Part shown: positions 7,035 to 63,070 of the stretch, one piece after another
How the letters are laid out: each line of letters begins with the position of its first letter
How positions within the stretch are numbered: position 1 is the stretch's first letter
Origin: Octopus vulgaris
Lineage: Eukaryota
Length of the DNA stretch: 64,000 bases
Direction of reading: 5' to 3'
Assembly: GCA_951406725.2 (NCBI GenBank)
Contig: OX597814.1
Coordinates: 76,570,001 to 76,634,000 of the forward strand
Translations under genes and position numbers: made by a program
The notes under the pieces: generated by a model
What the model was told of the DNA's origin: nothing
The model's database searches: none
Seen by the model: the letters and a program-made list of their open reading frames with translations, nothing else

Positions 7035-7190
7035 TATCATTTCCATAACAAACTGGTACTTATTTTATCGACCCCGAAAGGATGAAAGGCAAAGTCGGCC
7101 TCAGCGGAATTTGAACTCAGAACGTAGTGGCAGACGAAATACCGCTAAGCATTTCGCCCGGTGTGCTAACGATTCTACCAGCTCGCTACC
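7035..7190 (-). mobile_element. tRNA-derived SINE with Meta-type core
   Basis: B box GAGTTCAAATTCC and core GCCTTTCATCCTTTCGGGGTCGATAAAATAAGTACCAG; many copies in the window. Confidence 0.85.
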
Positions 7191-7236
<46 letters not shown>

Positions 7237-13033: not shown

Positions 13034-16000
13034 GGAGTTATAGTAGTAATCGTGTAATTATAATAGTGAACAAGTAAATAATAAGCTATAAGGATTAACG
13101 TGTAGTGTTGTGCAACCGTTGAGCCGTCGGCAGCTAAACTGACAACTCTACTAAGCTTGCTTAGTGAGGAGGATGGATTTTCGACATCCTGCAGGTTTAA
13201 AAATAGAACCCGACAAAGGGCAAAGGGCAAAGGAACTCAGGAGAGTCAATGGCCATTCCGAAAACAGATAGATAGAACTCGTGAGCCTTGGTTGGCAGTC
13301 TGTCTAGGAGATGGAGCACTCTGATTTAAAAACTGGGATAGATAGGACAACTTAGCCACAGTGATAACAACCTGTCAATGTCCAACGGCTCCATGCCTGG
13401 GATGAAAGCGAATGAACCGTGAATCGAGACGTAACTCCGGAGCAATATTTGGATGAAGATACGGGACCAACCGACGTTCACCTATCTCCTAGTGAGAATT
13501 ATGATCATGGTCCCAACACATAGAAATGCAAAGGGAACAGGCCCAACTTATGGGTAGTAAGGGCTTTGCAGACTTGGTTGACAATCTAACTAGAGATGGT
13601 GTCTCGAAAAAAATACCGGTAGGTGGATAACCTTAAAACACAAACCTCAATGTTGAGTGAAAATATCTAGTACAAATGTATTAAATAATGGTGTTAATGA
13701 GGCTGGAACCAAAGGTGAAAGCCTTTTGCCCAGCAGGTGTCCTGTGGCTGAGCAGCGCACGGCCGGTCATCATCCAGACTGCTTATACACAAAGCCAGAG
13801 GCAGAGAAGAAGGTAGGATAAGGTGGTAAACCGGACGGTAATTGAATGCTGGATCAGAAGCGAACCCAGTTGAAGGGAATTCCAATAACGCATGAAAACA
13901 AAATGGAATGAAATAGGGCTCTTCGAGATAAATGTGCAACGGCTAGCTGACAAGGCAAGAGCAATAAGAGCAAAAGAGTAGTTAACAGATATGGAAATTG
14001 AAGAGATGAAAAGGGAAGTGGAAAACAAAAATAATACTTCACCAGACAACGTGCCCAGCTAAGATAGAGAAATTAATGGCGGCTGTGAAGACGTAGAGCA
14101 AAGAGTAAATGCATTCTCAGCAAATGAAGCAGAAGTAATGGGAAGAGCTATATCGCAAGAATACGATGATGACCAACAAGACATAGTGAGAATGTTGTGC
14201 TGATATATTAGAGAAGACCAAGATCAATCACCACTCCACCCTACCCAGTCTGAGGTACATTGATTGACACAAGCTCGAAGTTGAAACCAAAAAGATAGAT
14301 TCGATCCAGACGAGAAATATAACTGAAACTAACAAAATTATTTGGGCTGCAGCTATGGTTGCTACAGACAGAGTTGGATATAAAGAGAACAAACAGAACG
14401 TGAAGAACCATACTGGCGTAGACGAATTTGTGAGAAACAAAGTTAAAAAGACATTTAGGACAAGTTGATAGGTTGAAAAGGGTAATTGCAGAATGAAAGC
14501 ATAGGAATAATGGTGGAAAGAACATATAGAATAAGAGTTAAAGGGTATGATGTGATATTGGAATAACTGAAACAAAGAGTAGTAGCAATCAAAGCAAAAC
14601 TGAATATGACAATAGAACAAAACAATTCAGGCAAAACATATTGTTTGAAACAAATCAAAAGAAACTGTTTTAGGAACTAGAAAAATAATTTTTAAAAAAA
14701 ACATTTAAGGAAGTTCCCAGATTGGAAGAGCCCAGGACCGGATGGGGTCCAAGGTTATTGGATGAAGAAGCTGAGAGAGCTGTATGAAAGGATAGTACTT
14801 CAGCTAGATGAGTACTCGCAGGAAGGCGCAGTACCCAGCTGGATGACAAAGAGAAAGACATTGATATGTGCCAAGGATCCTGAAAAGGGTAATGTTGCAT
14901 CAAACTTTCTACCAATAACGTGTCTTCCGCTATTGTCAGGTGCTTTGGCCGGTGAACTGTATAGATGCTTAGAAAAAAGTGTACTGCTACCAATTGAACA
15001 GAAGAGGTGCCGAAAGAGGAACTGGGAAACGAAGGATAAGCTCTTAATTGATAATCTATTTATCAGGAACTGCAAGAGAAGACACACGAACCTGAGCATA
15101 GCGTGGATTGACTATCGTAAAGTATACAATATGATACCACACTCCTGGATATCAAGAACAATGGAAATGTATGGAGTTGCAGAAAACATGAGAAATCTTA
15201 TATGGAACAGCATGAAATAACGGAATTGACGGCAGAGAATCAGGTATTAGGAAAGGTAAAAATCAAGAAAGGAATCTTCGAGGAGAAAAGTGTGCCCCCA
15301 TTGATCTTTGTGCTGGGAATGATCCTCTTGAGTGAAAAACTGCAGAAAACAAAGTTGTGACATTATCTGGAAAGAGGTAAGGGAAAACTGAACCACCTGC
15401 TATTCATGGATGACTTGAAGTTGTTAACAAAAAGTGAGGCAGAACTGGACGACTTAGTCCAGTCTGTGGGAATTTTATCCAATGATACTAAGATGGAGTT
15501 TGGACGAGGAAATCTTGTCAGAACAGAAGGCATATGGATGCCAAGTGGTAAAATGATGAAGATAATTCAACCTCAATCCAGTTATAAATACTTGAGAATA
15601 CTTGAGACGGATGGAATTAAACACAACGATATGAAATAAAAGACAAAGAAAGAGTACCTGCGGCAAGTGGGAAAAATATCGGCTTCAAAACTGAATGCCA
15701 GAAACCTAATTTCGGCAATAAATTCGCGCGCAGTCGCAGCAATTCGGTATAGCGCTGGAATCTTGAAGTGGACAGAGGAGGAGCTAAAGGAGTTGGACAG
15801 AAAGTCAAGAAAGCTCCTAATGTGGCATTGAGCCCATTATCCACGTGTAGACACTGATTGACTATATATGAAGAGAGTAAGTGGAGGAAGAGGACTGATA
15901 AGTGTGGAAGACTGCGTACGTATTGAACTCAAGAGCTAAATGAGATACCTAACCCAAAGCAAAGAAACCTTGCTGGTGTCAGTTAGGAATGAGGGAGTAC

Positions 16001-16875
16001 TGAAAGCAGAGAAAAAAAGGAAAAACAAAGGAAGAAGTACTAAAAGAACATGAAGAAGAATTACACAACAAGGGACTTGACAATCACTTCCATGTAGCCA
16101 CAACAGAAGTCACAGGAAAACATGCGAGATTGGCTGAAGAAAAGAACACTAAAAAAGAGAGAGTGAGAGCACTATACTGGCAGCACAAGACCAAGCTTTG
16201 GCCACGAACTGGAGGGTCAACCTTAGGAATGAGCGAGTGTCTCCACTGTGCCGCATCTGTAAACAGAGTGGATGAGATCATTACCCATATCACGAACGAA
16301 TGCCCTAGATTAACCCCAAACCATTACAAGTTGTGGCGACACGATCAGGTAGCGAAAGTACTACATTGGAAACTGTGCGAAAAGTGGGGGCTAGAGAAAG
16401 GGAAGACGTGGTATGAGAACAAAACGCAGAGAATTGCAATGTCGGAGACTAGAAAAATCCTCTGGGATTTCCCAATCCAAACAGGTCAGGTCTTAGGGCA
16501 TAACAGACCTGACCCAGTGGTGGTCGACAAGATGTACCACATGTATTATATGGTTGATGTTGCATGCCCCTTTGACCCAAGAATAGTCAAGAAGGAAGGC
16601 GAAAAAATAATACAACCCTCTTAAGTATGAAATAGTCCGGCTATGGAAAATGAAGAAGGTGAAGATAGTGCCAATTATTGTTGAGTCCTTGGGTACAGTA
16701 TCAGAAGACATCAAGGGGAATATAAAGGAAATTGGAATAGAGTAGTCAGTAGAACTGTTACAAAAGGTTTGCCTCTTTGGCGCAGCCATAATAATTAGTG
16801 AAGTACTAGATAGCTGAAAAGAATGAATAGCATGGTTGTAGGTAGCAAGCCGTTATGCATCTAAGACTCCAGAAA
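13033..16875 (+). mobile_element. Near full-length decayed R4/Dong LINE including 5' leader
   Basis: Follows (AAT)n; Myb-like domain (VIECWIRSEP..QRLAD), RT (PITCLP, AWIDYRKVYNMIPHSW, HLLFMDDLKL), CCHC, RHDQVAK, NRPD endonuclease; many stops and frameshifts. Confidence 0.92.
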
Positions 16876-16884
16876 AATAATAAT

Positions 16885-17692
16885 TTTCCCACAAGGGCAG
16901 CAATTTTGGGGGAGGAGATGAGTCGATTACATCGACCCTAGTATTCAACTGGTACTTATTTTATCGACCCCGAAAGGCTGAAAGGCAAAGTCGACCTCGG
17001 CGGAATTTGAACTCAGAACGGAGCGATGAGCGAAATACCTATTTCTTTACTACCCACAAGGAGCTAAACACAGAGAGGACAGACAAACGGATTAAGTCAA
17101 TTATATCGACCCCAGTGCGTAACTGGTTCTTAATTTATCGACCCCGAAAGGATGAAAGGCAAAGTCGACCTCGGCGGAATTTGAACTCAGAACGTAATGG
17201 CAGACGAAATACGGCTACGATTTCACCCGGCGTGCTAACGTTTCTGACAGCTCACCGCCGTTATAGTAATAGTCTTTCTACTGTAGGCACAAGGTCTGGA
17301 ATTGAGATAGTGGACTAGTCGATTGCAGCGACCCTAGTGTTTCACTGGAATTTAATCTATCGACCCCGAAAAGATGAAAGGCAAAATCGACCTCGGCGGC
17401 ATTTGAACTGATGGGCGAAATACCACTACGCATTTCGTCCAGCATGCTAACGATTCTGCTAGCTTACCGCCTTAATAATAATATTTTCCAATGGAAGCAC
17501 AATGCCTCAAATTTGGGGGAAATGCATAAGTCGATTACATCAACCCCAGTACGCAACAGGTACTTAATTTATCGCCCCCGAAAAAGGAAAAGCAAAGTCG
17601 ACCACGGTGGAATTTGAACTCAGAATGTAGTGACGGGCGAAATACCGATATGCATTTCGTCTAGCGCGCTAATGATTCGCCAGCTTGTCGCC
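16885..17692 (-). mobile_element. Cluster of Meta-type tRNA SINEs (four core units)
   Basis: Repeated ATCGACCCCGAAAGGATGAAAGGCAAAGTCGACCTCGGCGGAATTTGAACTCAG, separated by short AAT tracts. Confidence 0.9.
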
Positions 17693-17724
<32 letters not shown>

Positions 17725-22159: not shown

Positions 22160-22750
22160 GTTTCAGAACCTTCAAACGTCAATGATTTTTGTGCCTTTGT
22201 TAGACATACTATCAAAATCTTTAGAGCATCAGACAAAATGCTGTGCAGTATTTCTTTGGATTGTTCACATTCTAAGTTCAAATCTTGCCATTCATCCTTT
22301 CAAGGTTGATAAAATAAGATGCATCAAGCACTGGGGTCAAAATAGTTGACTTTTACCCTCTCCTCAAAACTGCTGGCCTCATTCCAAAATTAGTAAGTTG
22401 TTTTTGATTGAATGGTAGAGTTGTGGAAAAATGCCTTGCAGTATTTGTTCCAATCTTTGTATTCTGAGTTCAAATTTCACCAACATCAACTTTGCTTTCA
22501 TCTTTTTGGGGTTTATAAAAAAAAAAAAGTACTCAGATCTATATAAACAACTGTTCCCGCCTTGCAGATTTCTGGCCTTACAATTGGTGAAATAAGAATC
22601 ATTAGCATGCCAGACAAAATACTTAGTGTTAATTCATCTGTCTCTATCTTCTGAGTTCAAATTCCACTGAGATTAAATTTTGCTTTCCATCCTTTCAGGG
22701 TTTGATGAAATAAGTACCAGTTATGCACTGAACTCGATAAAATCAACAAG
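22160..22750 (+). mobile_element. Three tandem decayed Meta-type SINEs
   Basis: Three B-box motifs (AGTTCAAAT at about 22275, 22467, 22654), each followed by a degenerate CATCCTTTC.GGGT core. Confidence 0.7.
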
Positions 22751-26412: not shown

Positions 26413-26605
26413 TAATAATAATCCTTTCAACTATAGGCCCAAGGCCTGAAATGGGAGGAAGAGACTGGTACTTAATTTATCAACCCCAAAAGGATGAAGG
26501 GCAAAGTTACCCTCAGCAAAACTTGAATTCACAATGTAGCAGCAAACAAAATACTGCTAAGCATTTTGCCTGGCATGCTATCGATTCTGCCAGCTCACTG
26601 TTTTA
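26413..26605 (-). mobile_element. Meta-type SINE with (ATT)n tail
   Basis: Degenerate head, B box and core; ends GGCCTTGGGCCTATAGTTGAAAGGATTATTATT on minus. Confidence 0.75.
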
Positions 26606-26619
26606 ATGATAATAATAAA

Positions 26620-33829: not shown

Positions 33830-36800
33830 AATGCAATGGTGGACTAGGTGGTAATGGCATACTCCTAACTGAGAAATGAGAGGATAAGGTGATTGAGGTA
33901 GTCAGAGTGTGCAATAGGATACTTAAGTTTAGAATAGTTTGGCAAAATAGTACAGCTACAATTTTCTGAACATATGCCCCTCAACCAGGTCTACCAAATG
34001 AGCAAAAGGATTGTTTTTATATTCTTTTGCAGACTATCTCAAAGATAAATGATGGCCGCAAAGTTGGTTTCCATAATGAGGAGGGATAAGCTTAATGGAG
34101 TTCTGTGATGCAAATAACCTAATGATCTACAACACTAACTTCAAGAAGCCTGCAAATCACCTGGTAACTAATCAATCTGGTGACCATGCTAGCCAGATTG
34201 ACTACATTCTCACCAGAAAACAAGATACATAGTTGTTCATAAATGCAAAACCGTTTCCCAGGTGAAGAATGTACCCCTCAATATAGGTTAGTCATTAGTG
34301 ACTTCAGACTACATGCTAGGATTCCAGGAAGGAGACCAATCTGGAAAAGAAGGATTTGAAAGCTTAAGGATCCTTTAAATAGTCCGAGATTTAGTGACAT
34401 CCTTATTGAAGCATTTAATGGGAAGGAGAAGTTTGGAAGTTCCTAAGAGAAAACTTACTGAGAATCATAGACCAAATTTGTGGCTGGTGCCAAGTTCCAA
34501 CTAGACCTAAGATGACATGGTGGTGGAACAGTGTTGATGACAGAGCCATTAGAGCAAAGAAACAGTCCTCTAAGAACTGGAAGGGTGGTGGTAGCAAAGA
34601 ACTATGTCAGGTAGCTAGAAGGGAGGCTAAGAGACACATACTTAGCCAGAAAATAAGCAGAAAGAAAGAAGTTTGCCAATGTTTTGCAGCATGAGATTTT
34701 TCAGTTTGCAAGCGTGTCAAAGAAAATCATGATATTGTAGTAGAGAAGTGCATTCGCATGGATGTGTCAGTGACTCTGCAAAGAGAGAGGCTGGAAGTGC
34801 TACTAAATGTTGAAAACACATGAGAGAAGGGGAGCCTGCTTAATGTGAGCCCAACAGATGGACCAGTTATGTGCATAGACAGTAGCTTGGTAGATAAAAC
34901 AATTAAGGATATGAAGACAGGGAAAGCCCCCAGTCCATCAGGAATCGCTGCTGAGATGCTTAAAATATCTTGCGGAGTGGGATATAGTATAGTCACCCAT
35001 ATAGATAATCAGGTTGTCCATGAAGGAGTCATACCCAATGATTGGTGTAGCAGCGTTATAGTCAACTTCTACAAAGGTAAAGGTGATGCCTTAGACAGAA
35101 ATAATTACAGATGTAACAAATTGCTGGAATGGGTGATGAAAGATACAGAGAGGGTCATAGCTCAATTAATTAGGAAGACATTTAGTTTAGATGAGATGCA
35201 GTTTGGGTTTGTGTCAGGGAGAAGCACTACTGATGCTATTTTCCTAGTGAAGCAGCTGCAGGAGAAGTATCTAGCCAAAAATAAACATCTGTACTTGGCT
35301 TTTGTTGACATGGAGAAAGCTCTTGATAGGGTCTCCTACTCCCTTATTTAGTGGTCAATGCAGAAGCTAGAGATAGATGAGTGGTTGGGAAGAGCTGTAC
35401 AAGCCACAGACAGGAATGCTGTCAGCAAGGTGAAAATCAGCAACAAGTATAGCAATGAATTCAGTGTACAGGTAGGAGGTCACCAAGGATCAGTTCTCAC
35501 CCTCCATTCCTGTTCATCATAGTCCTCCAGGCCATAACAGAGTAATTTAAGACTGGCTACCCTTAGGAGCTCCTCTATGCAGATGACCTTGTTCTTATAG
35601 CTGAATAACTAGAGAAGAAATTTCAGGTGTGGAAGCAAGGTCTGCAATCAAAGATCCTTAGAGTTAATTTAGCAAAGACCAAAGTCCTAGTAAGTAGGAA
35701 AACAGACAAATCACTGATCCCTTCAGGGAGATAGCTCTACTTCATAGGCAGAAAAGATGTAGGTAGAAACTCCAAAAGGTGTACTAAAAGCAACCTAAGG
35801 ACACATAAGAGGTGCAGCAGTATCAAAGGAAGGTATCAGGGAAAGTAATCTTTGCATATGACAGATCTGCAGGCACAATAAACACTAAGAATGTACAGAA
35901 AATACTTAGTCAAATGTCTGTTGGAGTATACTTAGAAGTAGTAGATAGCTGTTACCTAGGTGGCCAAGTCAGCAATGGAGGAGAATTCCCTGAGAGAGTA
36001 GCTGCTAGAATAAGAATGGGTGGGCAAAATTCAGAGATCTTCTACCTTTGAATGAAAGACAAATTGTATGATGGTTGTATGCAAACAGCCATGCTACATG
36101 GCAACAAAACATGGACTATGACTGCAGATGAAAGAAATAAAAGGCTTGAAAGAAATAAAGTTAGCATCCAACACTGGATGCATAATGTTAGTGTACATAT
36201 ATGACAGAGTGTAAGTGTCTTAACCCTTTCGTTACCAAACCGCCCAAAGCCGGCTGAAAAAAATTTTGGTTAATGTGACCAAACCACCCAAACCCGCCCG
36301 AATTTACCTATTCATGTTTAAATGAGAATATCAGAGCAAATCTCTTTAGTACATTTGTGAAAACATGTGATTATACTTCGTAAACAGTTAATCTACAGTT
36401 TTGTACAACAATCGACGTGTAATTTTAATTCCCTGAATTTTGAGAGATTTTTTTCCACATTTTTTTCGGCATCGATTTTTCTTCAACTTTGAAAATGGAT
36501 TGGAGTCTCATGTTATCAAGCATTGATTCCGAATTGGAAAATTTGTGAAGCAAATACTGGGTACTGTTGTGGATTTAGTTTTTATACAGGGAAACTAATG
36601 TTAGCCAGCATGGCTTAGGGTAAGATGTGGTCTGGAAGTTATTGTTTGAAGCGATCAATGCGGAAACAAACTTACGCAAAATGTAAACAAACACAAAATG
36701 GGGGTTCAAGTTTCGGAAAATTTGTGAAGCATATACTGGGTACTGCGTGGATTTAGTTTTTATACAGGGAAAATAATGTTAGTCAGCATGGCCTAGGGAA

Positions 36801-37816
36801 CGATGTGGTCTGGAATTTATCACTTCCATACCATAACCAGGGCCGTATATTATTTTTTTACCGATTTCTTTAGTTCAGTCAAACTTCCGGTGGATTCCAG
36901 TATTTCCCTTTATTCCACCTTTATGGTACACCCATTGTGCATTAAATTCAACTGATGATATAGTGATGTGCACAATTCTTCTTTATCAAAATTTTGTTGC
37001 ATACCCATTTGAATATTAGCTGATGATTCATTTTCTATGGTGATGTCTAAACAAAATTTTAATATTTTTACCTTTTGCTCAATTTACCTGTAATTAAAGT
37101 CACTTTGAGACAAAAGTTATGCAATAGAATTGATTAAGAACTCTTTCTTTAATTATGTTCCAAATATCACATTAATATGTTGATAAATAAAAATGTTACA
37201 GTTATTTAATGAAACAAGCCTAGATTCATGATTATTTTAGAATTTAATTGAAACTCATGAGGGGTGTATATTGGTCAGAAATAAAGTAACGAAAGGGTTA
37301 AGAGAAATATTGGGTATGAAAGGCATCAGATGTGGTGTGCAAGGGAGAAGACTGCACTGGTATGGTCATGTGATGCATAAAGACAAAGACAGCTATGTAA
37401 AGAAGTGTCAATCTCTAATTGTGGAGGGAATGTGTGGAAGAGGGAGACCCAGGAAGATGTGGGACAAGGTAGTGAAACATGATCTTTGGTTGTTGAGTCT
37501 CATGGAAGCAATGACAAGTGACCAAGACTTCTGGTGATTTGCTGCACTTGAGAAGACATGTTAAGCTAAAGGAAATCATGGTTGTGGTTAGTATCAGTGA
37601 CATGTAAAAGGCACCCATGCCAGTGACATATAAAAGTGCACTCATGCCAGTGACCTGTAAAATATGTGCAGTGGCTGGCATTGGGAAGGGTATCCAGCCA
37701 GAGAAACCAAGCCAAAACAGACAACTGGAGCCTAGTGTAGCTCTCCAGTTTACCAGTTCTGGCCAAACTGTCTAACCCATGCCAGCATGGAAAACAGACA
37801 TCAAATGATGATGATG
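33830..37816 (+). mobile_element. Decayed RTE LINE (APE + RT), split by a piggyBac MITE
   Basis: YAPQPGL, SQIDYIL, MQFGFVSGRSTTDAIF, LLYADDL, GRGRPRKMW; 3' UTR ending in (GAT)n. Confidence 0.92.
36224..37297. mobile_element. Non-autonomous piggyBac-type element nested in the RTE
   Basis: TTAA TSD at 36220-36223 and 37298-37301; removal restores RTE QSVSVL-REIL (compare QSVSALREKL in the neighbouring copy). Confidence 0.93.
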
Positions 37817-37984
37817 AAGGCCCTTGAACCAGACAGTGGCAAGCAAACATTACGGATATAAACCCCACTTTTCTTTTATTATCCTGAATATACTAGTCCT
37901 GTATGCTATCTAAACATTTTTAGCCTAATGTGGCTTGTGCTGCTTTTTGAGTTTTATAGTGTCCCCTGTTAATCGGTCCATAGT

Positions 37985-40222
37985 TCATCATCATCATCAT
38001 CGTTTAACGTCCGCTTTCCATGCTAGCATGGGTTGGACGGTTCAACTGGGGTCTGGGAAGCCCGAAGGCTGCACCAGGCCAGTCAGATCTGGCAGTGTTT
38101 CTACAGCTGGATGCCCTTCCTAACGCCAACCACTCCATGAGTATAGTGGGTGCTTTTTATGTGCCACCGACACAGGTGCCAGACGAGGCTGGCAAACGGC
38201 CATGCTCGGATGGGGTTTTTTATGTGCCACTGACACAGGTGCCAGACGAGGCTGGCGAACGGCCACGCTTGGATGGTGTTTTTTATGTGCCACCGACACA
38301 GGTGCCAGACGAGGCTGGCGAACGGCCACGCTCGGATGGTGCTTTTTACGTGCCACCGGCACGGAGGCCAGGCAAGGCTGGCACGGCCACAATCAGATGG
38401 TGTTTGTTACGTGCCCACAGCACGGAGGCCAGTCTATGCGGTACTGGCTACGGCCACGTTCGGATGGTTTTCTTATGTGCCACCAGCACTGGTACCACAA
38501 AAATACAAATTCCATTTATGTTCATCGATTTTGATTTGGTTTGATTTTCACTTGCCTCAACAGGTCTTCACAAGTGTCCCAAGAAGGAAGGTATGCACAG
38601 GTGGACTGACTACGTCCCAGGTAGGGGCCATGGGTTATGGCCTCACATGTCCTGCCGGGTCTTCTTGCGCACAGCATACTTCCAAAGGTCTCGGTCTCTG
38701 GTCATTTCCTCGGTGAGACCTAAAGCGCGAAGGTTGTTCTTCACCACCTCGTCCCAGGTTTTCCTGGATCTACCTCTTCCACAGGTTCCCTAAACTGCTA
38801 GGGTGTGGCACTTTTTCACACAACTATCTTCATCCATTCTTACTACGTGTCCATACCAGCGTAGACGCCTCTCTTGCACACCACATCTGATGCTTCTTAG
38901 ATGCAACTTTTCTCTCAAGGCACTTACACTCTGTCGGGTATGAACACTGACATTACACATCCAACGGAGCATACTGGCTTCATTTCTTGCGAGCTTACGC
39001 ATATCCTCAGCAGTCACGGCCCATGTTTCACTGCCATGTAGCATGGCTGTTCACACATATGCGTCATACAGTCTCTCTTTTACTCTGAGCGAGAGGCCCT
39101 TTGTCACCAGCAGAGGTAAGAGCTCTCTGAATTTTGCCCAGGCTATTCTTACTCTAGCAGTTACACTTTCGGCACACCCACCCCCACTACTGACTTGGTC
39201 ACCTAGGTAACGGAAACTATCAACTATTTCAGGTTTTTCTCCCTGGAATGTGGCGAAAGATGGTCTCTGCGCATCTTCAGTCTTTATTGAACCAGAGCAT
39301 CTGCCACATACAAAACCGATCTTCCTAGTTAGCCTTCCTTTGACATTGCTGCACTTCTTATGTGTCCATAGCTTACACTTGGTGCATCTTATAGAGTTCC
39401 TACCTACGCCTTTTCTACAGATCGAGCAGGGCCATCTACCTGAAGGTGTTTGAGATTTGTCTACCTTCCTACTTATTAGGACTTTGGTTTTAGTTAGATT
39501 GACTCTAAGGCCCTTCAATTCTAATCCTTGCTTCCACGCCTGAAACCTCGAGTTCTGATAGTGATTCAGCAATTAGAGCAAGGTCGTCAGCATAGAGGAG
39601 CTCCCAGGGGCATCCTGTCTTGAATTCTTCCGTTATTGCCTGGAGGACTATGATAAATAGGAGGGGGCTGAGGACTGAGCCTTGATGAACCCCAACCTCC
39701 ACCCGGAATTCTTCACTGAACTCGTTGCCAACCCTCACCTTACTAACAGCGTCCCTGTACATGGCATGCACAGCTCTCACTAACCATTCAGCTATCCCTA
39801 GTTTCCTCATTGACCACCAGATAAGGGATCGGGGGACCCTGTCAAAGGCTTTCTCCAAGTCAACGAAAGCCAGGTACAGAGTTTTATCTTTGGCTAGGTA
39901 TTTCTCCTGCAGCTGTCTCACCAGAAATATGGCATCAGTGGTGCTTTTCCCTGGCACGAAACCAAACTGCATCTCGTCTAGGTTGACTCTCTCTCTAATC
40001 AGTTGGGCTATGACCCTTTCCGTAACCTTCTTTACCTGATCCAACAGCTTAATACCTCTGTAATTACTTGTATCTAGGGCGTCACCTTTACCTTTGTAGC
40101 AGTTGACTATTATGCTACTACACCAGTCATTGGGTATGACTCCTTCGTGTATCACCTGGTTATCTATACGTGTGACTAGGCTATAGCCGACACTGTCAGA
40201 TATTTTGAGCATCTCAGCAGTT
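37985..40222 (-). mobile_element. 5'-truncated RTE LINE with PHD-type insert
   Basis: NYRGIKLL, AFVDLEKAFDRV, GVHQGSVLSPLLF, YADD, FRYLGD; a few frameshifts; 3' UTR with about 60-bp tandem units and (GAT)n tail. Confidence 0.95.
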
Positions 40223-43877: not shown

Positions 43878-43909
<32 letters not shown>

Positions 43910-43912
<3 letters not shown>

Positions 43913-44208
43913 ACCCCGAAAGGATGAAAGGCAAAGTCGACCTTGGTGGAATTTGAACTCAGAACATAACAGCAGACAAAATACCTATTTCTTTACTACC
44001 CACAAGGGCCTAAACACAGAGAGGACAAACAAGGACAGACAAACGGATTAAGTCGATTATTCGACCTCCAGTGTGTAACTGGTACTTATTTAATCGACCC
44101 GGAAAGGATGAAAGGCAAAGTCGACCTCGGCGGAATTTGAACTCAGAACGTAGCAGCAGGTGAAATACCGCTAAGCATTTCGCCTGGCGTGCTAACGTTT
44201 TTGCCAGC
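43910..44208 (-). mobile_element. Dimeric Meta-type SINE next to (TA)n
   Basis: Same two-unit layout as 16950-17260. Confidence 0.88.
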
Positions 44209-45804
44209 TTATAAAAATATAAGTGTGAATATCAGTGTGTTACACTTTTTCAACTTTACTCCTAGAGGTCATAGCCCAACATATACCATTTCAGAATCAG
44301 GCCGACTCCGTGAGTAAATTATAATCATTCTGGGTCAAATCTGGACCCACACCCTGAAATTTTGGATTCCCAAGTTTTCATTAGTATAATTGTTTACAGC
44401 AATTGTTTTTATACAATAACAATTTTTATAATCTAAAGGCTAAGTAAATTAAAAACCATTCCAGGCCGAATCCAGACCTGCAATCCTGTAATTTTGGGTT
44501 CCTGTTTTCGGTGATTTTTTTTTTTTTTTTTACATGATTGAAAAGCAAAAGAACGAAATATTAAATGGATTTATGAATGAAAGTTTGGTAATTGCGTTTG
44601 CTTCCACCACGCAACACTTATTATTGCAAACAGGTCTTAACTAACCTAAACTACACACACACACAAATACATTCATATATATATGTCTCAAGTTGTATCT
44701 GTAATTCAAAGGGGCCAGCCTTGTCATATTTTGTGAGGCTGAATCTCCCCGAGAACTATCTTAATGTTATCCATGTCTGTGGAGTACTCAGCCATTTGTG
44801 AGTTAATTTTATCCTTGTGTTAATGAAAAGTGAAACCGGCTGTGTGTATGTATCTATGTATGAACTTTTCTTTGGAGTTATGTATCTGCTGTCTCTTTCA
44901 CTTCCTTTGTGTCTCTCTCCTGCTTTTGATTTAACAATATATGTATCTATTTATCTACTTCTCTCGTGATGTGATAAACATTTAAAAACACAAAACGAAT
45001 GCAGTCACCACTCACTGTCTCTTTCACTCTCTCTCTTTCTCTCTAAATTCCTCTCTGCCCTCCTCTCTTGCACTTTGCCACTTCTTTGAAGTAAGTGTGA
45101 CACACAACAGGGACATACAAAAACAAAAAATTAGCGTATAAATATTATTGATAGTCATGAAAGGATTAAAACATTTCAAATCTCTTCTAGTTTTTATATA
45201 GTGTACTATCAAAGGACCTTCGCCTTGCAAGTTATTTGATGACCCCTGCCAGTGTTGATGCATGAAATCCACACTGGACTTCAGTGGTTGGTGTTTGGAA
45301 GGGCATCCAGCTGTAAAAACCAAGTCAAAACAGACAGTGAAGCCTGGTGCTGTCATCTGCCTAGCCAGCTCCTGTCAACCCATCCAATCCATGCCAGCAT
45401 GGCAAACAGGCATTAAATGATAATGACTGTATGATACAGATAGTTTACTCTATTTCTAAGAAACTGATCCCCGATTTTCACTCCTCAGAATTTTGAAAGA
45501 AAAACATCTCCAATACTGTATGTACAACATTCATTTGAGACCTTTATTTCATAGAGAATAACCAAAATACAAAGGGAAAAAAGACAAAAAAAGGGATAGG
45601 AGATAAACATTATTAAAAGGAATTCCTATGAGTTTGACAAGTTCAAATGTTTTTACTTGATTGTGGACGTCATTAACCGTCCACAAACAAGCAAAACACT
45701 ACATACTATTTGTTCTTTGTTCTCAGATGAAACATAAGAACCCAGAACAATAGATTCTTCACTTGGCAATTGAACTTCTTAAATTCTTCTATGGACTAAT
45801 TAAT

Positions 45805-46012
45805 TCTTTCTACTAAAGGTACAAAGCCTGAAATTTGGGGAAGTGGACTAGTCAATTACATCAACCCCAGTGTTTCATTTGTACTTTATTAACCCTGAAA
45901 GGGTGAAAGGTAAAGTCAACCTCGGTGGGTTTTGAACTCAGAATGTAAAGATGGACAAAATGTCACAAAACATTTTGCTTAGTGTGTTAATGATTCTGCC
46001 AGCTCATTGCCT
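45805..46012 (-). mobile_element. Meta-type SINE
   Basis: Degenerate head, B box, core and tail. Confidence 0.75.
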
Positions 46013-46203
46013 TTCTTTTATGGACTAATTAATAACACCACAAATGACAGTTTTCTCACTAATCATATTGACTGAAAGGAAGCAACTATGTAAGATAAAC
46101 ACTTAAGATCACAGACAATATATAATTGGTAAAAAATATAGGGATTTAGAAAATATGATAGAGTAATAATATGAAATACTTAAAATTTCTAAACAATATT
46201 TAC

Positions 46204-52643: not shown

Positions 52644-52675
52644 CTGAAAAGTACAAATATAAAACACATATATAC

Positions 52676-55665
52676 ATCATCATCATCATCATCATTTAAC
52701 GTCCGCTTTCCATGCTAGCATGGGTTGGACGGTTCAACTGGGGTCTGGGGAGCCCGAAAGCTGCACCAGTCCAGTCAGATCTGGCAGTGTTTCTACAGCT
52801 GGATGCCCTTCCTAACGCCAACCACTCCGAGAGTGTAGTGGGTGATTTTATGTGCCACCGACACAGGTGCCAGACGAGGCTGGCAAACGGCCATGCTCGG
52901 ATGGTGTTTTTTTATGTGGCACCGACACAGGTGCCAGACGAGGCTGGCAGACGGCCACGCTCGGATGGTGTTTTTATGTGCCACCGACACAGGTGCCAGA
53001 TGAGGCTGGCAAACGGCCACGATCGGATGGTGTTTGTTACGTGCCCAGAGCACGGAGGCCAGTCGATGAGGTACTGGCTACGGCCACATTCGGATGGTTT
53101 TCTTGTGTGCCACGTGCCACCGGCACTGGTACCACAAAGATACAAATTCCATTGATGTTCATCTATTTTGATTTGTTTTGATTTGATTTGATTTTCACTT
53201 GCCTCAACAGGTCTTCACAAGTGTCACAAGAAGGAAGGTATGCACAGGTGGACTGACTACGTCCCAGGTAGGGGCCACAGGTTATGGCCCGACTAGTCTT
53301 GCCGGGTCTTCGGATGGTGTTTTTATGTGCCACCGACACAGGTGCCAGATGAGGCTGGCGAACGGCCACGATCGGATGGTGTTTGTTACGTGCCCACAGC
53401 ACGGAGGCCAGTCGGTGCGGTACTGGCTACGGCCACGTTCGGATGGTTTTCTTGCGTGCCACTGGCACTGGTACCACAAGATACAATTCCATTAATGTTC
53501 ATCTATTTTGATTTGTTTTGATTTGATTTGATTTGATTTGTTTTGATTTCATTTTGATTTTCACTTGCCTCAACAGGCCTTCACAAGTATCACAAGGAGG
53601 AAGGTATGCACAGGTGGACTGACTACGTCCCAGGTAGGGGCCATGGGATATGGCCTGACTAGTCTTGCCGGGTCTTCGGATGGTGTTTTTATGTGCCACC
53701 GACACAGGTGCTAGATGAGGCTGGCGAACGGCCACGATCGGATGGTGTTTGTTATGTGCCCACAGCACGATGGCCAGTCGATGCGGTACTGACTACGGCC
53801 ACGTTCGGATGGTTTTCTTGTGTGCCACAGGCACTGGCACCACAAAGATACAAATTCCATTGATGTTCATCTATTTTGATTTGATTTGATTTGATTTTCA
53901 CTTGCCTCAACAGGTCTTCACAAGTGTCACAAGAAGGAAGGTATGCACAGGTGGACTGACTAGTCTTGCCGGGTCTTCGGAAGGTGTTTTTATGTGCCAC
54001 CGACACAGGTGCCAGATGAGGCTGGCGAACGGCCATGACCGGATGGTGTTTGTTACGTGCCCACAGCACGGAGGCCGGTCGATGCGGAACTGGCTACGGC
54101 CACATTCGGATGGTTCTCTTGTGTGCCACCGGCACTGGTACCACAAAGATACAGATTCCATTGATGTTCATCTATTTTGATTTATTTTGATTTTGATTTT
54201 CACTTGCCTCAACAGGTCTTCACAAGTGTCACAAGAAGGAAGGTATGCACAGGTGGACTGACTACGTCCCAGGTAGGGGCCATGGGTTATGGCCTGACTA
54301 GTCTTGCCGGGTCTTCGGATGGTGTTTTTATGTGCCACCATGTTCCCACAGCACGGAGGCCAGTCGATGCGGTACTAGCTACGGCCACGTTCGGATGGTT
54401 TTCTTGTGTGCCACAGGCACTGGTACCACAAAGATACAAATTCCATTGATGTTCATCTATTTTGATTGATTTTCACTTGCCTCAGCAGGTCTTCACAAGT
54501 GTCACAAGAAGGGAGGTATGCACAGGTGGATCGACTACGTCCCAGGTAGGGGCCACGGGATATGGCCTGACTAGTCCTGCCGGGTCCTCTCATGCACAGC
54601 ACACTTCCATAGGACTCGGTCTTCAGTCATTTCCTTGGTGAGACCTAAAGTTCGAAGGTCGTGCTTCACCACCTCGTCCCAGGTTTTCCTGGGTCTACCT
54701 CTTCCACAGGTTCCCTCAACTGCTAGGGTGTAGCACTTTTGCACACAACTATCTTCAGCCATTCTCGTCACATGACCATACCAGCGCAGCCGTCTCTCTT
54801 GCACACCACAACTGACACTTCATAGGTTCAACTTTTCTCTCAAAGTACTTACACTCTGACGATTATGAACACTGACATTACACATCCATCGGAGCATACT
54901 GGCTTCATTTCTTGCAAGCTTACGCATATCCTCAGCAGTCACGGCCCATGTTTCACTACCATGTAGCATGGCTGTGCGTACACACGCATCATATAGTCTG
55001 CCTTTTACTCTTAGCGAGAGGCCTTTTGTCACCAGCAGGGGTAAGAGCTCTCTAAACTTTGCCCAGGCTATTCTTACTCTAGCAGTTACACTTTCAGCAC
55101 ACCCACCCCCGCTACTGACTTGGTCTCCTAGGTAGCGGAAGCTATCAACTACTTCTAGTTTGTCTCCCTGGAACGTGGTAGAAGTTGGTCTCTGCACATT
55201 TCCAGTGTTTATTGCTCCTGAGCATCTGCCACAGACAAAAACTATTTTCTTAGTTAGCCTTCCTTTGACATTGCTGCACCTCTTATGTGTCCATAGCTTA
55301 CACTTGGTGCACCTTATAGAGTTTCTACCTACACCTTTTTTACAGATCGAGCAGGGCCATCTACCTGAAGTCGTTTGTGATTGGTCCACCTTCCTACTTA
55401 TTAGGACTTTGGTTTTGGCTAGGTTGATTCTAAGGCCCTTCGATTCTAATCCTTGTTTCCACACCTGAAACTTCTCCTCCAGTTCTGATAGTGACTCAGC
55501 AATTAGAGCAAGGTCATCAGCATAGAGGAGCTCCCAGGGGCATCCTGTCTTGAATTCCTCCGTTATTGCCTGGAGGACTATGATAAATAGGAGGGGACTG
55601 AGGACTGAACCTTGGTGGACCCCAACCTCTACCCGGAATTCTTCACTGTACTCGTTGCCAATCAA
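52676..55665 (-). mobile_element. 5'-truncated RTE LINE with amplified 3' UTR
   Basis: 281-aa open RT/PHD segment (54820-55665), stop at 54571, repeated 3' UTR blocks, (GAT)n tail. Confidence 0.95.
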
Positions 55666-59125: not shown

Positions 59126-59294
59126 AATTAAGTTAAAGTTTTCTTTCCTAATTAAAATCTAATTCTAAAATACTTAATTTAAAATGTTAATAATTATTGG
59201 TGCCCCAGCATGGCCGCGGCCTTCGGGCTAAAACATTTTTAAGGATTTCAGGATTATATATATATATTTGAGGATCTTTGGTTTTTTGGTACAT

Positions 59295-59520
59295 GAGCTG
59301 GCAGAAACGTTAGCACGCCGGGCGAAATGCTTAGCGGTATTTCGTCTGCGTTACGTTGTGAGTTCAAATTCCGCCGAGGTCGACTTTGCCTTTCATCCTT
59401 TCGGGGTCGATAAATTAAGTACCAGTTACGCACTGGGGTCGATGTAATCGACTTAGTACCTATGTCTGTCCTTGTTTTTCCCCTCTGTGTTTAGCCCCTA
59501 GTGGGTAATAAAGAAATAGG
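59295..59520 (+). mobile_element. Well-preserved Meta-type SINE upstream of NUFIP1
   Basis: Intact B box and core; flanked by GGTACAT at 59288-59294 and 59519-59525 (candidate TSD). Confidence 0.9.
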
Positions 59521-60189
59521 TACATATATCCGTGGGACTTATAACACCAATATTTTAATATATGTCACTGTAAATAAATACAGTAATTTGAAGGAAAGAA
59601 AATAATCGAGTAAGCGAAATGAATAAGTAAATGCATAAAAGTTACTTATTGGCATTCCTTCGATATAACTCGAAAAAACTAAACATTTGACTTCGGGTAT
59701 TTCCGTGCCAAATGACAGTTGCCGAATTGGGAGAAGAAAGCTAATTGGTTGTGTGTGCGTGCCTGTTCTGTTTTTATGTATTTATAGGTTGTGGAATATA
59801 GATTATGCCAGCAATGTCTCATTTTAAACTTGAAAAAAACCTTGCATATTTGTTATAACTGCTTCATGTGTGTAAGTAAACTCCGCAAATTACCATGCAG
59901 AAAACAGAATCGAAGTTTGCATCGCAAATATCAGAAAACGAGAATGCCATATCAATTATACTAGTCCATGTTTTTTTTTTTTTTTTGTTTTTTTTTAACT
60001 TATAATGAGGAGAAAAAGAGGGACTATACAATGCATTTTATGAATTTCATAAAAAAAACATTCTTGAAGTTTAAATTAGTCAGTATTATACTGCCAAACG
60101 CATTTATGAAATTCATAAAAGCATTGTCTCTGTTGTATCGTTGCCAACTAAACTCGAACAGATACGTTGAGAATACGGCCTCTGATACA

Positions 60190-62090
60190 TAAACTTCGAT
60201 TATAGATACAAAGTGATCCAGACATCCAAGTTTACTAAGTATTTTCCATAGCAAGGCCCTATTCACAGTATCAAAGGCCTTTAAATCAATGAATACCTGG
60301 ACAAGATCCATATTCTGCTCATAGCACTTCTGCATCTGTCTTGCTGTGAAAATCATATCCATTGTCCCTCTACCAAATTGGAAGCCACATTGAGATTCAG
60401 ATAGTACATCATTTACGAGACACCCATTCAGGCAGGTAAGAAGAACATTTGCCAGAAGCTGGTAGCAATACCTCTGTAGTTACCACACATTGTTCTGGCT
60501 CCTTTTCCTTTATAGAGAGAAAGAATAATTGCATCCTTCCAGTCCTTTGGCATTACACCATTCCTCCAGACTGCATTAATAAGTTCATGAAGGGACTGTA
60601 TGATGTAATCACCACCAAATCGCAAGACCTCAGCACAAAGTCCATCCTTTCTAGATGCCCTACCAAGATTCAATTTACTTATTAATGTCATTACCTCATC
60701 TAATGAGGTCATGGAATTTAAGGAACCACTGATAGGTTTTTGTTGCATAGTATCAATCACTGTTTCATCCACAACTGACTCATGGTTTAGGAGTTCGGAG
60801 AAGTGTTCAATCCAGCGCCCTGTGATTTCTGTTGATTTAGTAATTAGAGTAGAAGACTCCTTGGAAAGTAAAGGAGCTGATGTGTAGTTCTTAGGCCCAT
60901 AAACTTGCTTCATAAGATGGTAAAGCTTCTTGCTATTTGCATCAGCAGCAGCCTGAACATTATGAGCAAGATCCTTCCACTAAGTGTTCTGCTTCCCCTT
61001 CCAAAAAAAAGTGTATCCTCAAGTTGACCATCACCTTCTAGACGAGTCTCTGAAAGTGCAGCTATATCACTGTTATAGTGGTTCAGCTCATGAGCAACAA
61101 GTGCAGTGCATCTTTCAGGCCTACAATCAGTCTTGTTATCCAACAGAGTGTGCACATTCCAACATGAAATGTTCAAGTTCCATCCAGATTTTGTAAATAA
61201 AAGTCTTTGTTTTTCGAGCACAGGGTTGACATCCATCAGTCGTGCTAAACTGACCAGATATAGAAAGACAGGCAATTTTTGGGTCACCTTTTCTAGAACC
61301 TCCCCAGCCTCTAGGTGAGCAATGCCCTCTCCAAATGGAGCTGCTCAGACACCCATGCAGCAACCGAATCCTACCACTGTCTTGGGTGACAGGGAGATGA
61401 CTTTATATCTAGCATGGGCCGCCTACATGCAGGTTGCTCACTACATTCTTCCAACCCGTCAGGTCTGCATGCTTCACCACCTTCCCATCACTGCAGGACT
61501 TCCAAATAAAAATAAAATAAATATATACTAAAAATAAAGATAGATGTATACTGAAAATAAAATAAATATATAGAGAGCAGCACATATCGAGCAGAAGTCA
61601 GCAATGCCTGTCCAGAGTTTTAAGTCCAATAAGGCTTGCACAACACCTCATACATACTCTCCACTTTATTGACATTATCCAGAGACAAGCCAGAGCAAGA
61701 TGTCTGGTGCCAATATGTGTCACAGGCTCAGAGATGTTTGAGTGCCATGATCTCTAGCACAAACCAAAGATACCCAAAATGTCCAATGCCATACCCTGCA
61801 TATCAGAGTGACCTTCTCCTAGAGACATGCTTCAACAGAAGCTGAAGGGTGCTTCACTCCCAAGGTCTTTCAGCATGCAGGACACCATCCCAGAATAGCT
61901 GTTGAGCCTGCACTAGGTTCATCCAACCTTTCAACAGGTCTTGTTTTTAATCCTGCTGGGTTTTTAGCAATCCTCCTCACCAGGGTAGCCTGGTGGGGGT
62001 GCTGATTTAGTCGCCAACAACCCGACCATGCAACAGGTTGTACTGGATTCCATGTTACCTGTAGCACTTATGAGAGCCTCATAAGTGACC
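60190..62090 (-). mobile_element. RTE (BovB-like) LINE with long 5' leader, internally deleted and 3'-truncated
   Basis: WNVHTLLD..RPERCTALVAHEL..IAALSETRL (APE N-terminus), PKDWKDAII..YKGKG..CGNYRGI, DMIFTARQMQ..AFDTVNR. Confidence 0.9.
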
Positions 62091-62124
62091 TGACATACAT
62101 ACATACATATATTCATACATACAT

Positions 62125-63070
62125 GGGATTACATCATAGAGCATAGGGAGGTAGTACCATGACAATATTTCAGGACAGCTGCTAACTACATGCATGGCAT
62201 CTTCCACAGAAACATGATGTAGCCTACACGTGTGGCTGCACCTTGGGATTACAAGTGCATCACTGTCTCTCTTGTTCACTAGATACTTTGTGGCTATCTC
62301 CTGTTCCTGGATTGCAAATGCATAGCCTTCAAAGTGTGATGTGATGTAGTGGTCTTGTGTCCAAGAGAGGCTGCACTTTGTGTCAATTCTACTGTCTTCT
62401 TCAAGCTTCCGGGCAACATACCCATGCATAGTTTTTTTTTTCTTTTGTATGTTGTCACAGTACTACATTGTGGCACAATGTTGTTGCTAAAACAATTTAC
62501 AATGCCATCCACAAAAAAGACTGTCCTGAAACAAGCTTAGAAAATCCCTCTGTTATGGAATACATTCATGAACACCAACTTAAGGAATACTGGTGGAATA
62601 TTCCCATCAAAGCTTCTGTCAAATGTAAACATAACAGGCCAGATATTGTTTGGGACAGAGGGGCCAAGGCATGTACCATCATAGAGATCAGCTACTCTGC
62701 AGATATAAATATCTCTTTGAAAATCAAAGGAAAAGAGGATATCTATGGACAACTGCTTCAAAACCTCCAGCTTTTATATCCAGACTATGAATTCATATTC
62801 ATATCAATAATAATTAGAGCACTAGGTTTTGTTAGTAAATGCTTAAAGGAGGATCTAGATAAACTAAGATTTTCAGAAAGAGAAATTGACCGACTGATTC
62901 ATACATCACAAGTGCAACCTGTGAGTGAAACAGTAAAAATATGCAAGACTTTTCTCAAGTTACAAATGTGAATTTGTCTGTGTTAACTACATTCCGAAGA
63001 TGGAGCCTTATATATTTGTTGGAAACTGGCTCCCTCCTCAGTGGAAGATTTATAATAATTTGAAAATAGA
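62125..63070. mobile_element. R4-like LINE 3' part with inverted 5' segment, in (CATA)n
   Basis: Minus 62125-62460: MHGY, AIQEQEI, CCHC remnant. Plus 62461-62971: HNVVAK, HNRPDIV endonuclease; (CATA)n on both sides. Confidence 0.88.

Follow-up and report, generated by a model that had tools for sequence, protein, structure and literature searches.

A subclass 1a xrRNA-like domain at the 5' end of octopus RTE retrotransposons, and an adjoining RNA module shared with Dong elements

A stretch of 64,000 nucleotides of the Octopus vulgaris genome (GenBank assembly GCA_951406725.2, contig OX597814.1; G000:C1:76570001-76634000, here called the window) carries two decayed long interspersed nuclear elements (LINEs). 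One is a broken Dong/R4-type element on the forward strand from position 13034, the other a broken RTE element on the reverse strand from 62094. The Dong/R4 clade is the one to which we take the former to belong, with its motifs and (TAA)n flanks read by eye. The leaders of these elements are built from three parts, M0, M1 and M2. M0 makes up the RTE's 5' end and has the same element order and most of the core letters of the subclass 1a exoribonuclease-resistant RNAs (xrRNAs) of flaviviruses. M1 and M2 follow M0 and are also found in Dong, where M0 is lacking. Judging from sequence comparison, we think it probable that a host nuclease halted by M0 trims read-through RNA to the start of the RTE and that M1 and M2 were copied into Dong by template switching.

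A preliminary description of the window had aligned the two leaders collinearly. The match is sound, with a local score of 67 against a mean of 22 and a maximum of 40 in 2000 dinucleotide resamplings; in M1 the two window copies are identical at 54 of 87 columns. The two decayed copies on which that description relied are not the only ones. With the window leaders as queries against the 2.8 Gb genome, we obtained 661 first-look candidates for Dong and 1825 for RTE, of which 40 were scored and 30 loci taken in each case; these sets are called family A (Dong leader) and family B (RTE leader). Both leaders are features of multi-copy LINE families: Dong-type coding sequence follows 21 of the 30 family A loci (RTE-type sequence follows none), and RTE-type sequence follows 22 of the 30 family B loci.

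Searching the genome for the shared core by a pattern gave 1380 exact matches, mostly to family C, a 510-bp non-coding element with an RTE 5' end and (TATG)n flanks. Families E and F were found with a pattern for the 5' part, and family F is an intact RTE of 1046 amino acids with an APE endonuclease and a reverse transcriptase (RT). A metagenome scan returned 35 loci, 28 of them homologues in seven lineages. Clear APE endonuclease frames lie downstream in five of ten translated loci, with Pfam support for L095. The seven remaining loci of the metagenome scan (L098, L103, L104, L106, L123, L124 and L125) have no flanking similarity and were set aside as chance matches. The parts occur in several combinations: M0, M1 and M2 in families B and C, M0 and M2 in family F, M1 and M2 in Dong. 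M0, which lies just beyond the stretch compared in the preliminary description and was missed there, has been seen only in RTE-type elements. Our model of it (R2) finds none in the 30 family A loci or in eight Dong loci selected by their open reading frame (ORF), apart from the chimeras described below.

The likeness of M0 to an xrRNA was checked against published features. M0 begins with G and U, followed by the 5' strand of stem P1 (CAGG/CCUG), a variable hairpin (P2), one C, stem P3 with A-U as its second pair, C and one further base, the 3' strand of P1 and a strand that pairs with the P3 loop. Such features are described for subclass 1a xrRNAs (PMC8374639, PMC8632102). The single C between P2 and P3 occurs in all ten M0 lineages (one copy, L120, has G), as does the A-U second pair of P3, and the 5' G-U with a 5-bp P1 in seven. 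Across 17 distinct copies 94.4% of cells pair, and none of 500 shuffles reaches the covariation score. The pseudoknot between the P3 loop and the strand 3' of P1 (PK2) changes on both sides at all four of its pairs, with 82% of cells pairing. The three-way junction of P1, P2 and P3 is present: P2 varies in length and sequence, one P3 pair changes on both sides and P1 is invariant. The second pseudoknot, of the 5' G with the C after P3 (PK1), is G-C in 14 of 15 cells, without covariation; it is found in seven of the ten lineages, the misses being truncated or decayed 5' ends. The letters of the U.A-U triple are likewise constant (A-U in 17/17, the 5' U in the seven intact lineages); they never vary, and the geometry itself is invisible in sequence. 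With this anatomy, M0 would form the ring fold of an xrRNA.

Rfam points in the same direction for excised copies: RF01415 (Flavivirus_SLIV) is the top match, over its full length, for the M0 of L108 and L134, from two different families, at 20.9 bits (E=0.051) and 15.2 bits (E=0.92) respectively; the gathering cut-off of this family is 54.5 bits. When the flanks were included, no RF01415 match was obtained for L095 or the window copy, and neither the whole window nor either of the leaders gave a relevant match when compared with Rfam. M0 may work like the RF01415 family, yet it is not classed as a member in Rfam. Descriptors have already been used to find viral xrRNAs (PMC8128465). A class 1a descriptor drawn up from published features matches six of the ten M0 lineages, one of 80 phage control loci, none of 2100 shuffles and none of the 30 Dong loci.

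The flavivirus domain sits in a viral 3' untranslated region (UTR), whereas M0 stands at the 5' end of a retrotransposon encoded in a genome. M0 also differs in its P3 of 6 bp with a loop of 11-13 nt, and in the low Rfam scores; the likeness may be due to homology or to convergence. Other sources were scanned as well. Viral contigs gave no match to the M1 pattern, one match to the M2 pattern, which was dismissed as chance, and at least 120 matches to a loose pattern, which resemble chance and were reused as a control. The one match in prokaryote genomes (L173) fails the class 1a descriptor.

If M0 protects the 5' end of an RNA, this should be visible where copies have inserted. In 19 of 27 copies of family C and 10 of 12 of family D (both chosen on M1), no more than 2 nt separate the 5' junction from the first G; 28 of 30 family B copies (chosen on the full leader) start at or beside it. 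Family F, for which 30 of 36 matches were read, allows the upstream letters to be compared with those of an inferred donor, L345 (the same locus as L330, G000:C7:28.56 Mb), which has an intact ORF. The upstream flank of this donor, from 26 to about 290 nt or more, is present in 12 other F copies on several chromosomes; the donor must therefore have been transcribed from upstream. Among these 12 is L347, possibly a duplication, which has 862 nt in common with the donor. Short junctions are found in 17 loci, which reduce to 13 independent copies when five with another flank in common are counted once. These share 3-4 nt with the donor flank in eight cases, 2 nt in one, 1 nt in two and none in two. 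No copy of the 13 shares 5-25 nt, and CTT is expected by chance with a probability of 0.019 per copy.

Nine F copies have both ends, and in seven of them one to three donor-type letters lie outside the target-site duplication (TSD). For example, exactly CTT stands between the TSD and the first G in L356 and L363; the letters there are AACTT in L372, TT in L348 (read by eye) and a single T in L344, L349 and L359. These junction letters suggest that the RNA began about 3 nt before the G, at a distance of 5 nt from P1. In mosquito-borne flaviviruses, Xrn1 is halted by the xrRNA some 5 nt ahead of P1 (PMC7749634), and a corresponding start of protected RNA is indicated indirectly here, in one family, by the F insertion junctions.

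Some further observations concern these same 5' ends. Near-identical full-length RTE copies with the intact 1046-aa ORF and 5' transductions of host flank occur at L330/L345, L328 and L329, and family F looks recently active. Three of the F transductions end at 161-164 nt. At L294, L295, L297, L298, L134, L140, L296 and L316 the first bases of the element are partly repeated at the 5' junction of some copies, either as one or two additional units of 5 nt or as a repeat of 10-15 nt. On C29 of the same genome (27.63-27.90 Mb and 29.56-29.69 Mb), about 25 M0 matches of equal score lie 5-20 kb apart, and the RTE 5' end is here part of a large tandem or segmental array.

We propose that a read-through transcript of the RTE would start in host sequence upstream and that decapping or cleavage of this transcript would let XRN1 or XRN2 enter. 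The host 5'-3' exonuclease would then stall at M0 and leave an RNA trimmed to the start of the element, so that nuclease trimming to an xrRNA would replace a ribozyme. An RNA trimmed in this way would be uncapped. Coremin, an xrRNA known from plant viruses and other RNA viruses, is able to stall scanning ribosomes (PMC6546385, PMC10520033, PMC10321173), and for both reasons a downstream module for initiation or protein binding would be needed. M1 and M2, in front of the ORF, could be this module. A role of the two in translating or assembling uncapped RNA seems to us nearly an even proposition, and it would explain why Dong has kept both in front of its own ORF.

A number of points weigh against this account. 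No covariation is seen in P1, in the triple letters or at the junction C, which match the viral fold without proving that they pair. The Rfam scores are far under the gathering cut-off, and a search of the whole genome with RF01415 found no match, although it is too insensitive for matches of 20 bits. The class 1a descriptor was written after the motif had been seen; it passes over four of ten lineages and most decayed copies, among them the one in the window, 25 of the 30 from family B and 20 of the 30 found with the C pattern. In the young subfamily of F, P2 has a C.A mismatch at its base. Families B and C insert in (TATG)n, where the upstream letters are irresolvable, and the family F donor is inferred. 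Five of the 13 short-junction F copies share no more than 2 nt with its flank (three of these carry older variant letters). Of the nine copies with both ends, L355 shows microhomology alone and L352 is at odds with the scheme. The CTT could also have been inherited with the element, which a start site or a cut at -3 would explain too. For M1, the search patterns fixed parts of the two pseudoknot stems (S1 and S2) and of the first hairpin, so these columns could not vary; related sequences can exceed a shuffle control without any structure; and the M1 tree, built from 140 nt, has no root. The role given to M1 is a best guess.

Two other explanations of the fixed 5' end have to be considered. 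M0, alone or with M1, could belong to an unrecognised class of self-cleaving ribozyme and cut 3 nt ahead of the first G. Ribozymes at the 5' end serve other RTE elements (PMC8501958, PMC6765202), and a fixed 5' end within a read-through transcript is what such an enzyme would produce. We nevertheless regard this as very improbable, since no Rfam ribozyme family matches, the cut would land in flanking letters that vary from family to family, the anatomy is a match to a nuclease-blocking fold, and untrimmed RNA gave rise to 12 of the 29 F copies other than the donor. Alternatively, an internal RNA polymerase II promoter, or a stop of the RT near the knot, could set the 5' end while M0 merely protects the element or binds its protein. 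LINE 5' ends can drive transcription (PMC5786205), many copies start at or beside the first G, and short non-autonomous families retain the whole 5' part. This explanation, to which we give slightly more weight but which is still improbable, has to account for a family F donor that was transcribed from at least 280 nt upstream, and for letters outside the TSD whose match to the donor flank stops at the published halt distance.

Known ribozymes were also compared one by one. A ribozyme role, one of those suggested for the part shared by the two elements, is not supported: it fits none of the known cores and is not a place where the 5' ends of Dong accumulate. Hammerhead, pistol and hatchet ribozymes each have a characteristic catalytic core. 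The hammerhead core CUGANGA is present in two of 12 lineages, within a hairpin or downstream; the linker letters required for pistol vary; a fit to hatchet was tried and dropped; none of the three has an Rfam match. For twister (features from Table 1 of PMC8501958) the L4 motif, in which CCC-AAGC pairs with GAGGG and GC, is found in none of 12 lineages, though GAGGG occurs in 11. Measured against the description in PMC11331408, an HDV-like (hepatitis delta virus-like) fold, a nested double pseudoknot of P1-P4 whose catalytic C lies in J4/2, fails because the covarying stems come in another order, with no P2 strand before P3; there is again no Rfam match. Permuted ribozyme forms are also known (PMC10085705), and no known core fits.

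M1 consists of an H-type pseudoknot and four hairpins. At the level of families, pairing is kept in all 22 cells that have changed doubly, and 12 of these lie in two helices that were anchored on their loops alone. In alignment A2 (20 copies, including two M0 stems) the proportion of paired cells is 94.5%, and both sides have changed in 16 of 36 pairs, which none of 500 shuffles matches; when the partners are slid, at most five pairs change on both sides. Single-strand folding is weak (z from -2.3 to +0.1), but pseudoknots are invisible to this method. The covariation proposed as a check of M1 is present, and no Rfam family matches M1. A version of the M1 pattern with one changed pair has no match in the genome.

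The compensatory changes that had been read from the pseudoknot of the two window copies do not stand: both family majorities have GTCG/CGAC and GTCGG/CCGGC, and the window differences are private substitutions in decayed copies (29 in the Dong copy and 15 in the RTE copy, six of CpG type in each). Similarly, the supposedly invariant GTGAGGAGGAT reads GTGAGGAGGGT in both family majorities. The pair changes between the families in the two hairpins are real, and the pseudoknot-hairpin fold is supported by paired changes in 11 lineages. A hairpin with a 13-nt A-rich loop and the fourth hairpin had been overlooked.

The leader belongs to the Dong family and is not an RTE fragment lying by chance in front of one copy, because all eight ORF-selected Dong copies that retain the family A upstream sequence contain the module. 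Among 30 loci picked by Dong protein, the family A module lies upstream in nine and three are RTE-Dong chimeras; the remainder end short of the module. In Dong this module does not stand at the terminus: the window copy is 5'-truncated and other copies extend 450-800 nt further upstream, so that M1 lies 450-800 nt inside the Dong 5' UTR. Dong 5' ends are spread (two of 34 distinct copies end within 10 nt of M1), and M1 therefore does not set them. In L021, L024 and L028 as much as 800 nt of Dong 5' UTR precedes M1; this sequence is rich in AT, does not code for protein and consists of short internal repeats. Contigs from four sequencing runs were compared with a Dong locus; two runs cover it throughout and two at M1 only, which is no proof of absence.

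The data support the idea that RTE and Dong have exchanged a conserved RNA module. Dong M1 shares 87% identity with that of family C and 74% with that of family B (80/87 against 70/87 in the core), it is sister to family C among the RTE versions with a support of 0.98, and the Dong-RTE similarity ends just before S1. A C-type M1 also stands on an RTE body, in L061. Being nested among RTE versions, the Dong M1 was likely captured from RTE, and template switching would be the means. At L055, L056, L166, L168 and L170 (G000:C1, about 206.1 and 215.9-216.5 Mb) a 5' part of family B of about 700 nt is fused directly to Dong coding sequence. These chimeras are near-identical and on one chromosome, and are probably a single chimera spread by local duplication; they indicate that such joins occur in this genome.

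In five loci (L109, L129, L131, L139 and L141) M1 is followed directly by a purine-rich block other than M2, a fourth module. This is presumably the purine-rich sequence of BovB-type RTE 5' UTRs.

The block downstream of M1 common to RTE and R4 is real but is already in print. M2 is the RTE 5'-UTR / Ceph-3' domain of Kojima (2018), which is present in RTEs of many animals and also in R4-1_ADi and Ingi-3_AC (PMC5786205). Its Dong family majority is identical to RTE-4_NV 130-197 at 54 of 68 positions, compared by eye with the supplement of that paper, and it sits in the middle of the 5' UTR. M1, unlike M2, is undescribed in the literature searched; its GTGAGGAG motif has no match in the text of the same supplement, which does not include the alignment of Fig. 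S4, where M1 may already be present. Octopus RTE and Dong elements have been described (PMC9115989), and the passages concerned do not treat the structure of the leader.

M1 itself might be a second, coremin-like xrRNA in tandem with M0, acting as a back-up block. Like coremin and its Watson-Crick variant, M1 opens with a GUC/GAC stem, whose loop forms a pseudoknot with an AAAC linker (as in that variant, the C of the linker is paired to the final G of the loop), and has an adjoining hairpin 1-2 nt downstream (PMC10520033, PMC6546385, PMC10321173), and flavivirus xrRNAs are often in tandem (PMC8374639). In the RTE, the first stem of M1 stands where P4 follows the viral xrRNA. However, its loop has 9-11 nt instead of the YGAD-type 4-7, S2 has 5-7 bp, the linker is 2 nt shorter (UAAA and then S2, against a linker of 10 nt) and there are three further hairpins. 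According to these reports, the viral motif was no longer resistant once a single linker base had been removed, and ordinary H-type pseudoknots do not stall Xrn1. M1 is not the class 3 fold either, in which P1 and P2 are stacked (PMC11702639). Dong 5' ends also show no pile-up at M1. We consider a coremin-like function rather unlikely; it concerns M1 only and is compatible with the xrRNA reading of M0. It is about equally doubtful that the Dong M1 is a neutral passenger of one chance template switch, kept as the master copy had it. RTE-Dong chimeras do arise here, and the Dong majority has lost pairs at two positions that are retained in RTE versions. Against this, most Dong-specific changes in M1 keep the pairing or fall in loops, and the presence of M2 in an unrelated R4 element and in an Ingi element (PMC5786205) suggests repeated capture.

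The table gives the features of the window. In its M0 copy, T>A at 62060 disrupts one P3 pair. The Dong element has RT and C-terminal restriction-like endonuclease motifs, with Pfam RT below the cut-off; a PDB search with its C-terminal piece found no match. Directly upstream of the RTE, at 62130-62460 (-), lies a fragment that resembles the zinc-knuckle region of another Dong-type element, with (TATG)n between the two. One abundant SINE-like (short interspersed nuclear element-like) repeat occurs at 7051-7222, 16901-17724, 22595-22747, 26464-26618, 43905-44212, 45805-46013 and 59293-59455, and longer repeats at 34948-40220 and 52672-55661.

Table. Elements of the Dong and RTE copies in the window (positions are those of the 64,000-nt stretch)
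Feature	Position	Strand	Remarks
Remnant of Dong-specific AT-rich 5' UTR	13034..13117	+	5'-truncated, beside a (TAA)n run
M1, Dong copy	13118..13254	+	S1 13118-13121 with 13131-13134; S2 13126-13130 with 13139-13143; four hairpins; 3' end approximate
M2, Dong copy: RTE 5'-UTR / Ceph-3' domain	13266..13333	+	
Broken Dong/R4-type ORF: N-terminal domain, RT, C-terminal zinc knuckle, restriction-like endonuclease motifs	13680..16815	+	Ends approximate; motifs by eye; Pfam RVT_1 E=0.025
Broken RTE ORF pieces, APE endonuclease then RT	60024..61344	-	Pfam Exo_endo_phos E=0.033, RVT_1 E=7e-6, both below cut-off
M2, RTE copy: diverged RTE 5'-UTR / Ceph-3' domain	61800..61845	-	
M1, RTE copy: H-type pseudoknot (S1 and S2 with UAAA linker), then four hairpins	61897..62026	-	3' end approximate
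M0, class 1a xrRNA-like domain, 5' end of RTE copy	62027..62094	-	Model R2 73.4 bits
M0 layout, 5' letters	62094; 62093	-	G; U
M0 layout, P1	62092-62088 with 62038-62034	-	
M0 layout, P2	62087-62065	-	
M0 layout, junction C	62064	-	
M0 layout, P3	62063-62058 with 62046-62041	-	Loop CATG pairs with 62030-62027

The 5' ends of RTE elements are known to be processed by HDV-like or twister ribozymes (PMC8501958, PMC6765202), and the ribozyme fold of R2 has been proposed to shield the 5' end (PMC11331408). Such ribozymes, at the 5' ends of R2, R4 and RTE elements, stand in the same place as M0 and likely do the same job, freeing the element from the host co-transcript and shielding its 5' end. Unlike in them, no catalytic core was found in M0, and an end made by a host nuclease would carry a monophosphate. 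A specialist review of 2021 describes xrRNAs as characterised in viruses only and asks whether eukaryotic genomes hold them (PMC8374639). In the literature that we searched (titles and the beginnings of abstracts, with subscription papers and Repbase or Dfam notes outside it) we found no report of an xrRNA in a retrotransposon. We lean, if only slightly, towards a more extended picture. In it, an animal RTE lineage would have at its 5' end a working flavivirus-type xrRNA, the first with a function in a cellular genome, and its RNA would be defined there by host XRN and not by a ribozyme or promoter; M1 would be either a second block of the coremin type or a mobile module for cap-independent translation; and viral and retrotransposon xrRNAs would be related through template switching.

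M0 is a concrete xrRNA candidate that is present in thousands of genomic copies. M1 and M2 illustrate that modules of the 5' UTR move between LINE clades with unrelated endonucleases. If the proposal for M0 is true, it would add a third route to a LINE 5' end, beside the internal promoter and the ribozyme. One would then also have to ask whether flavi-like viruses and retrotransposons have exchanged RNA.

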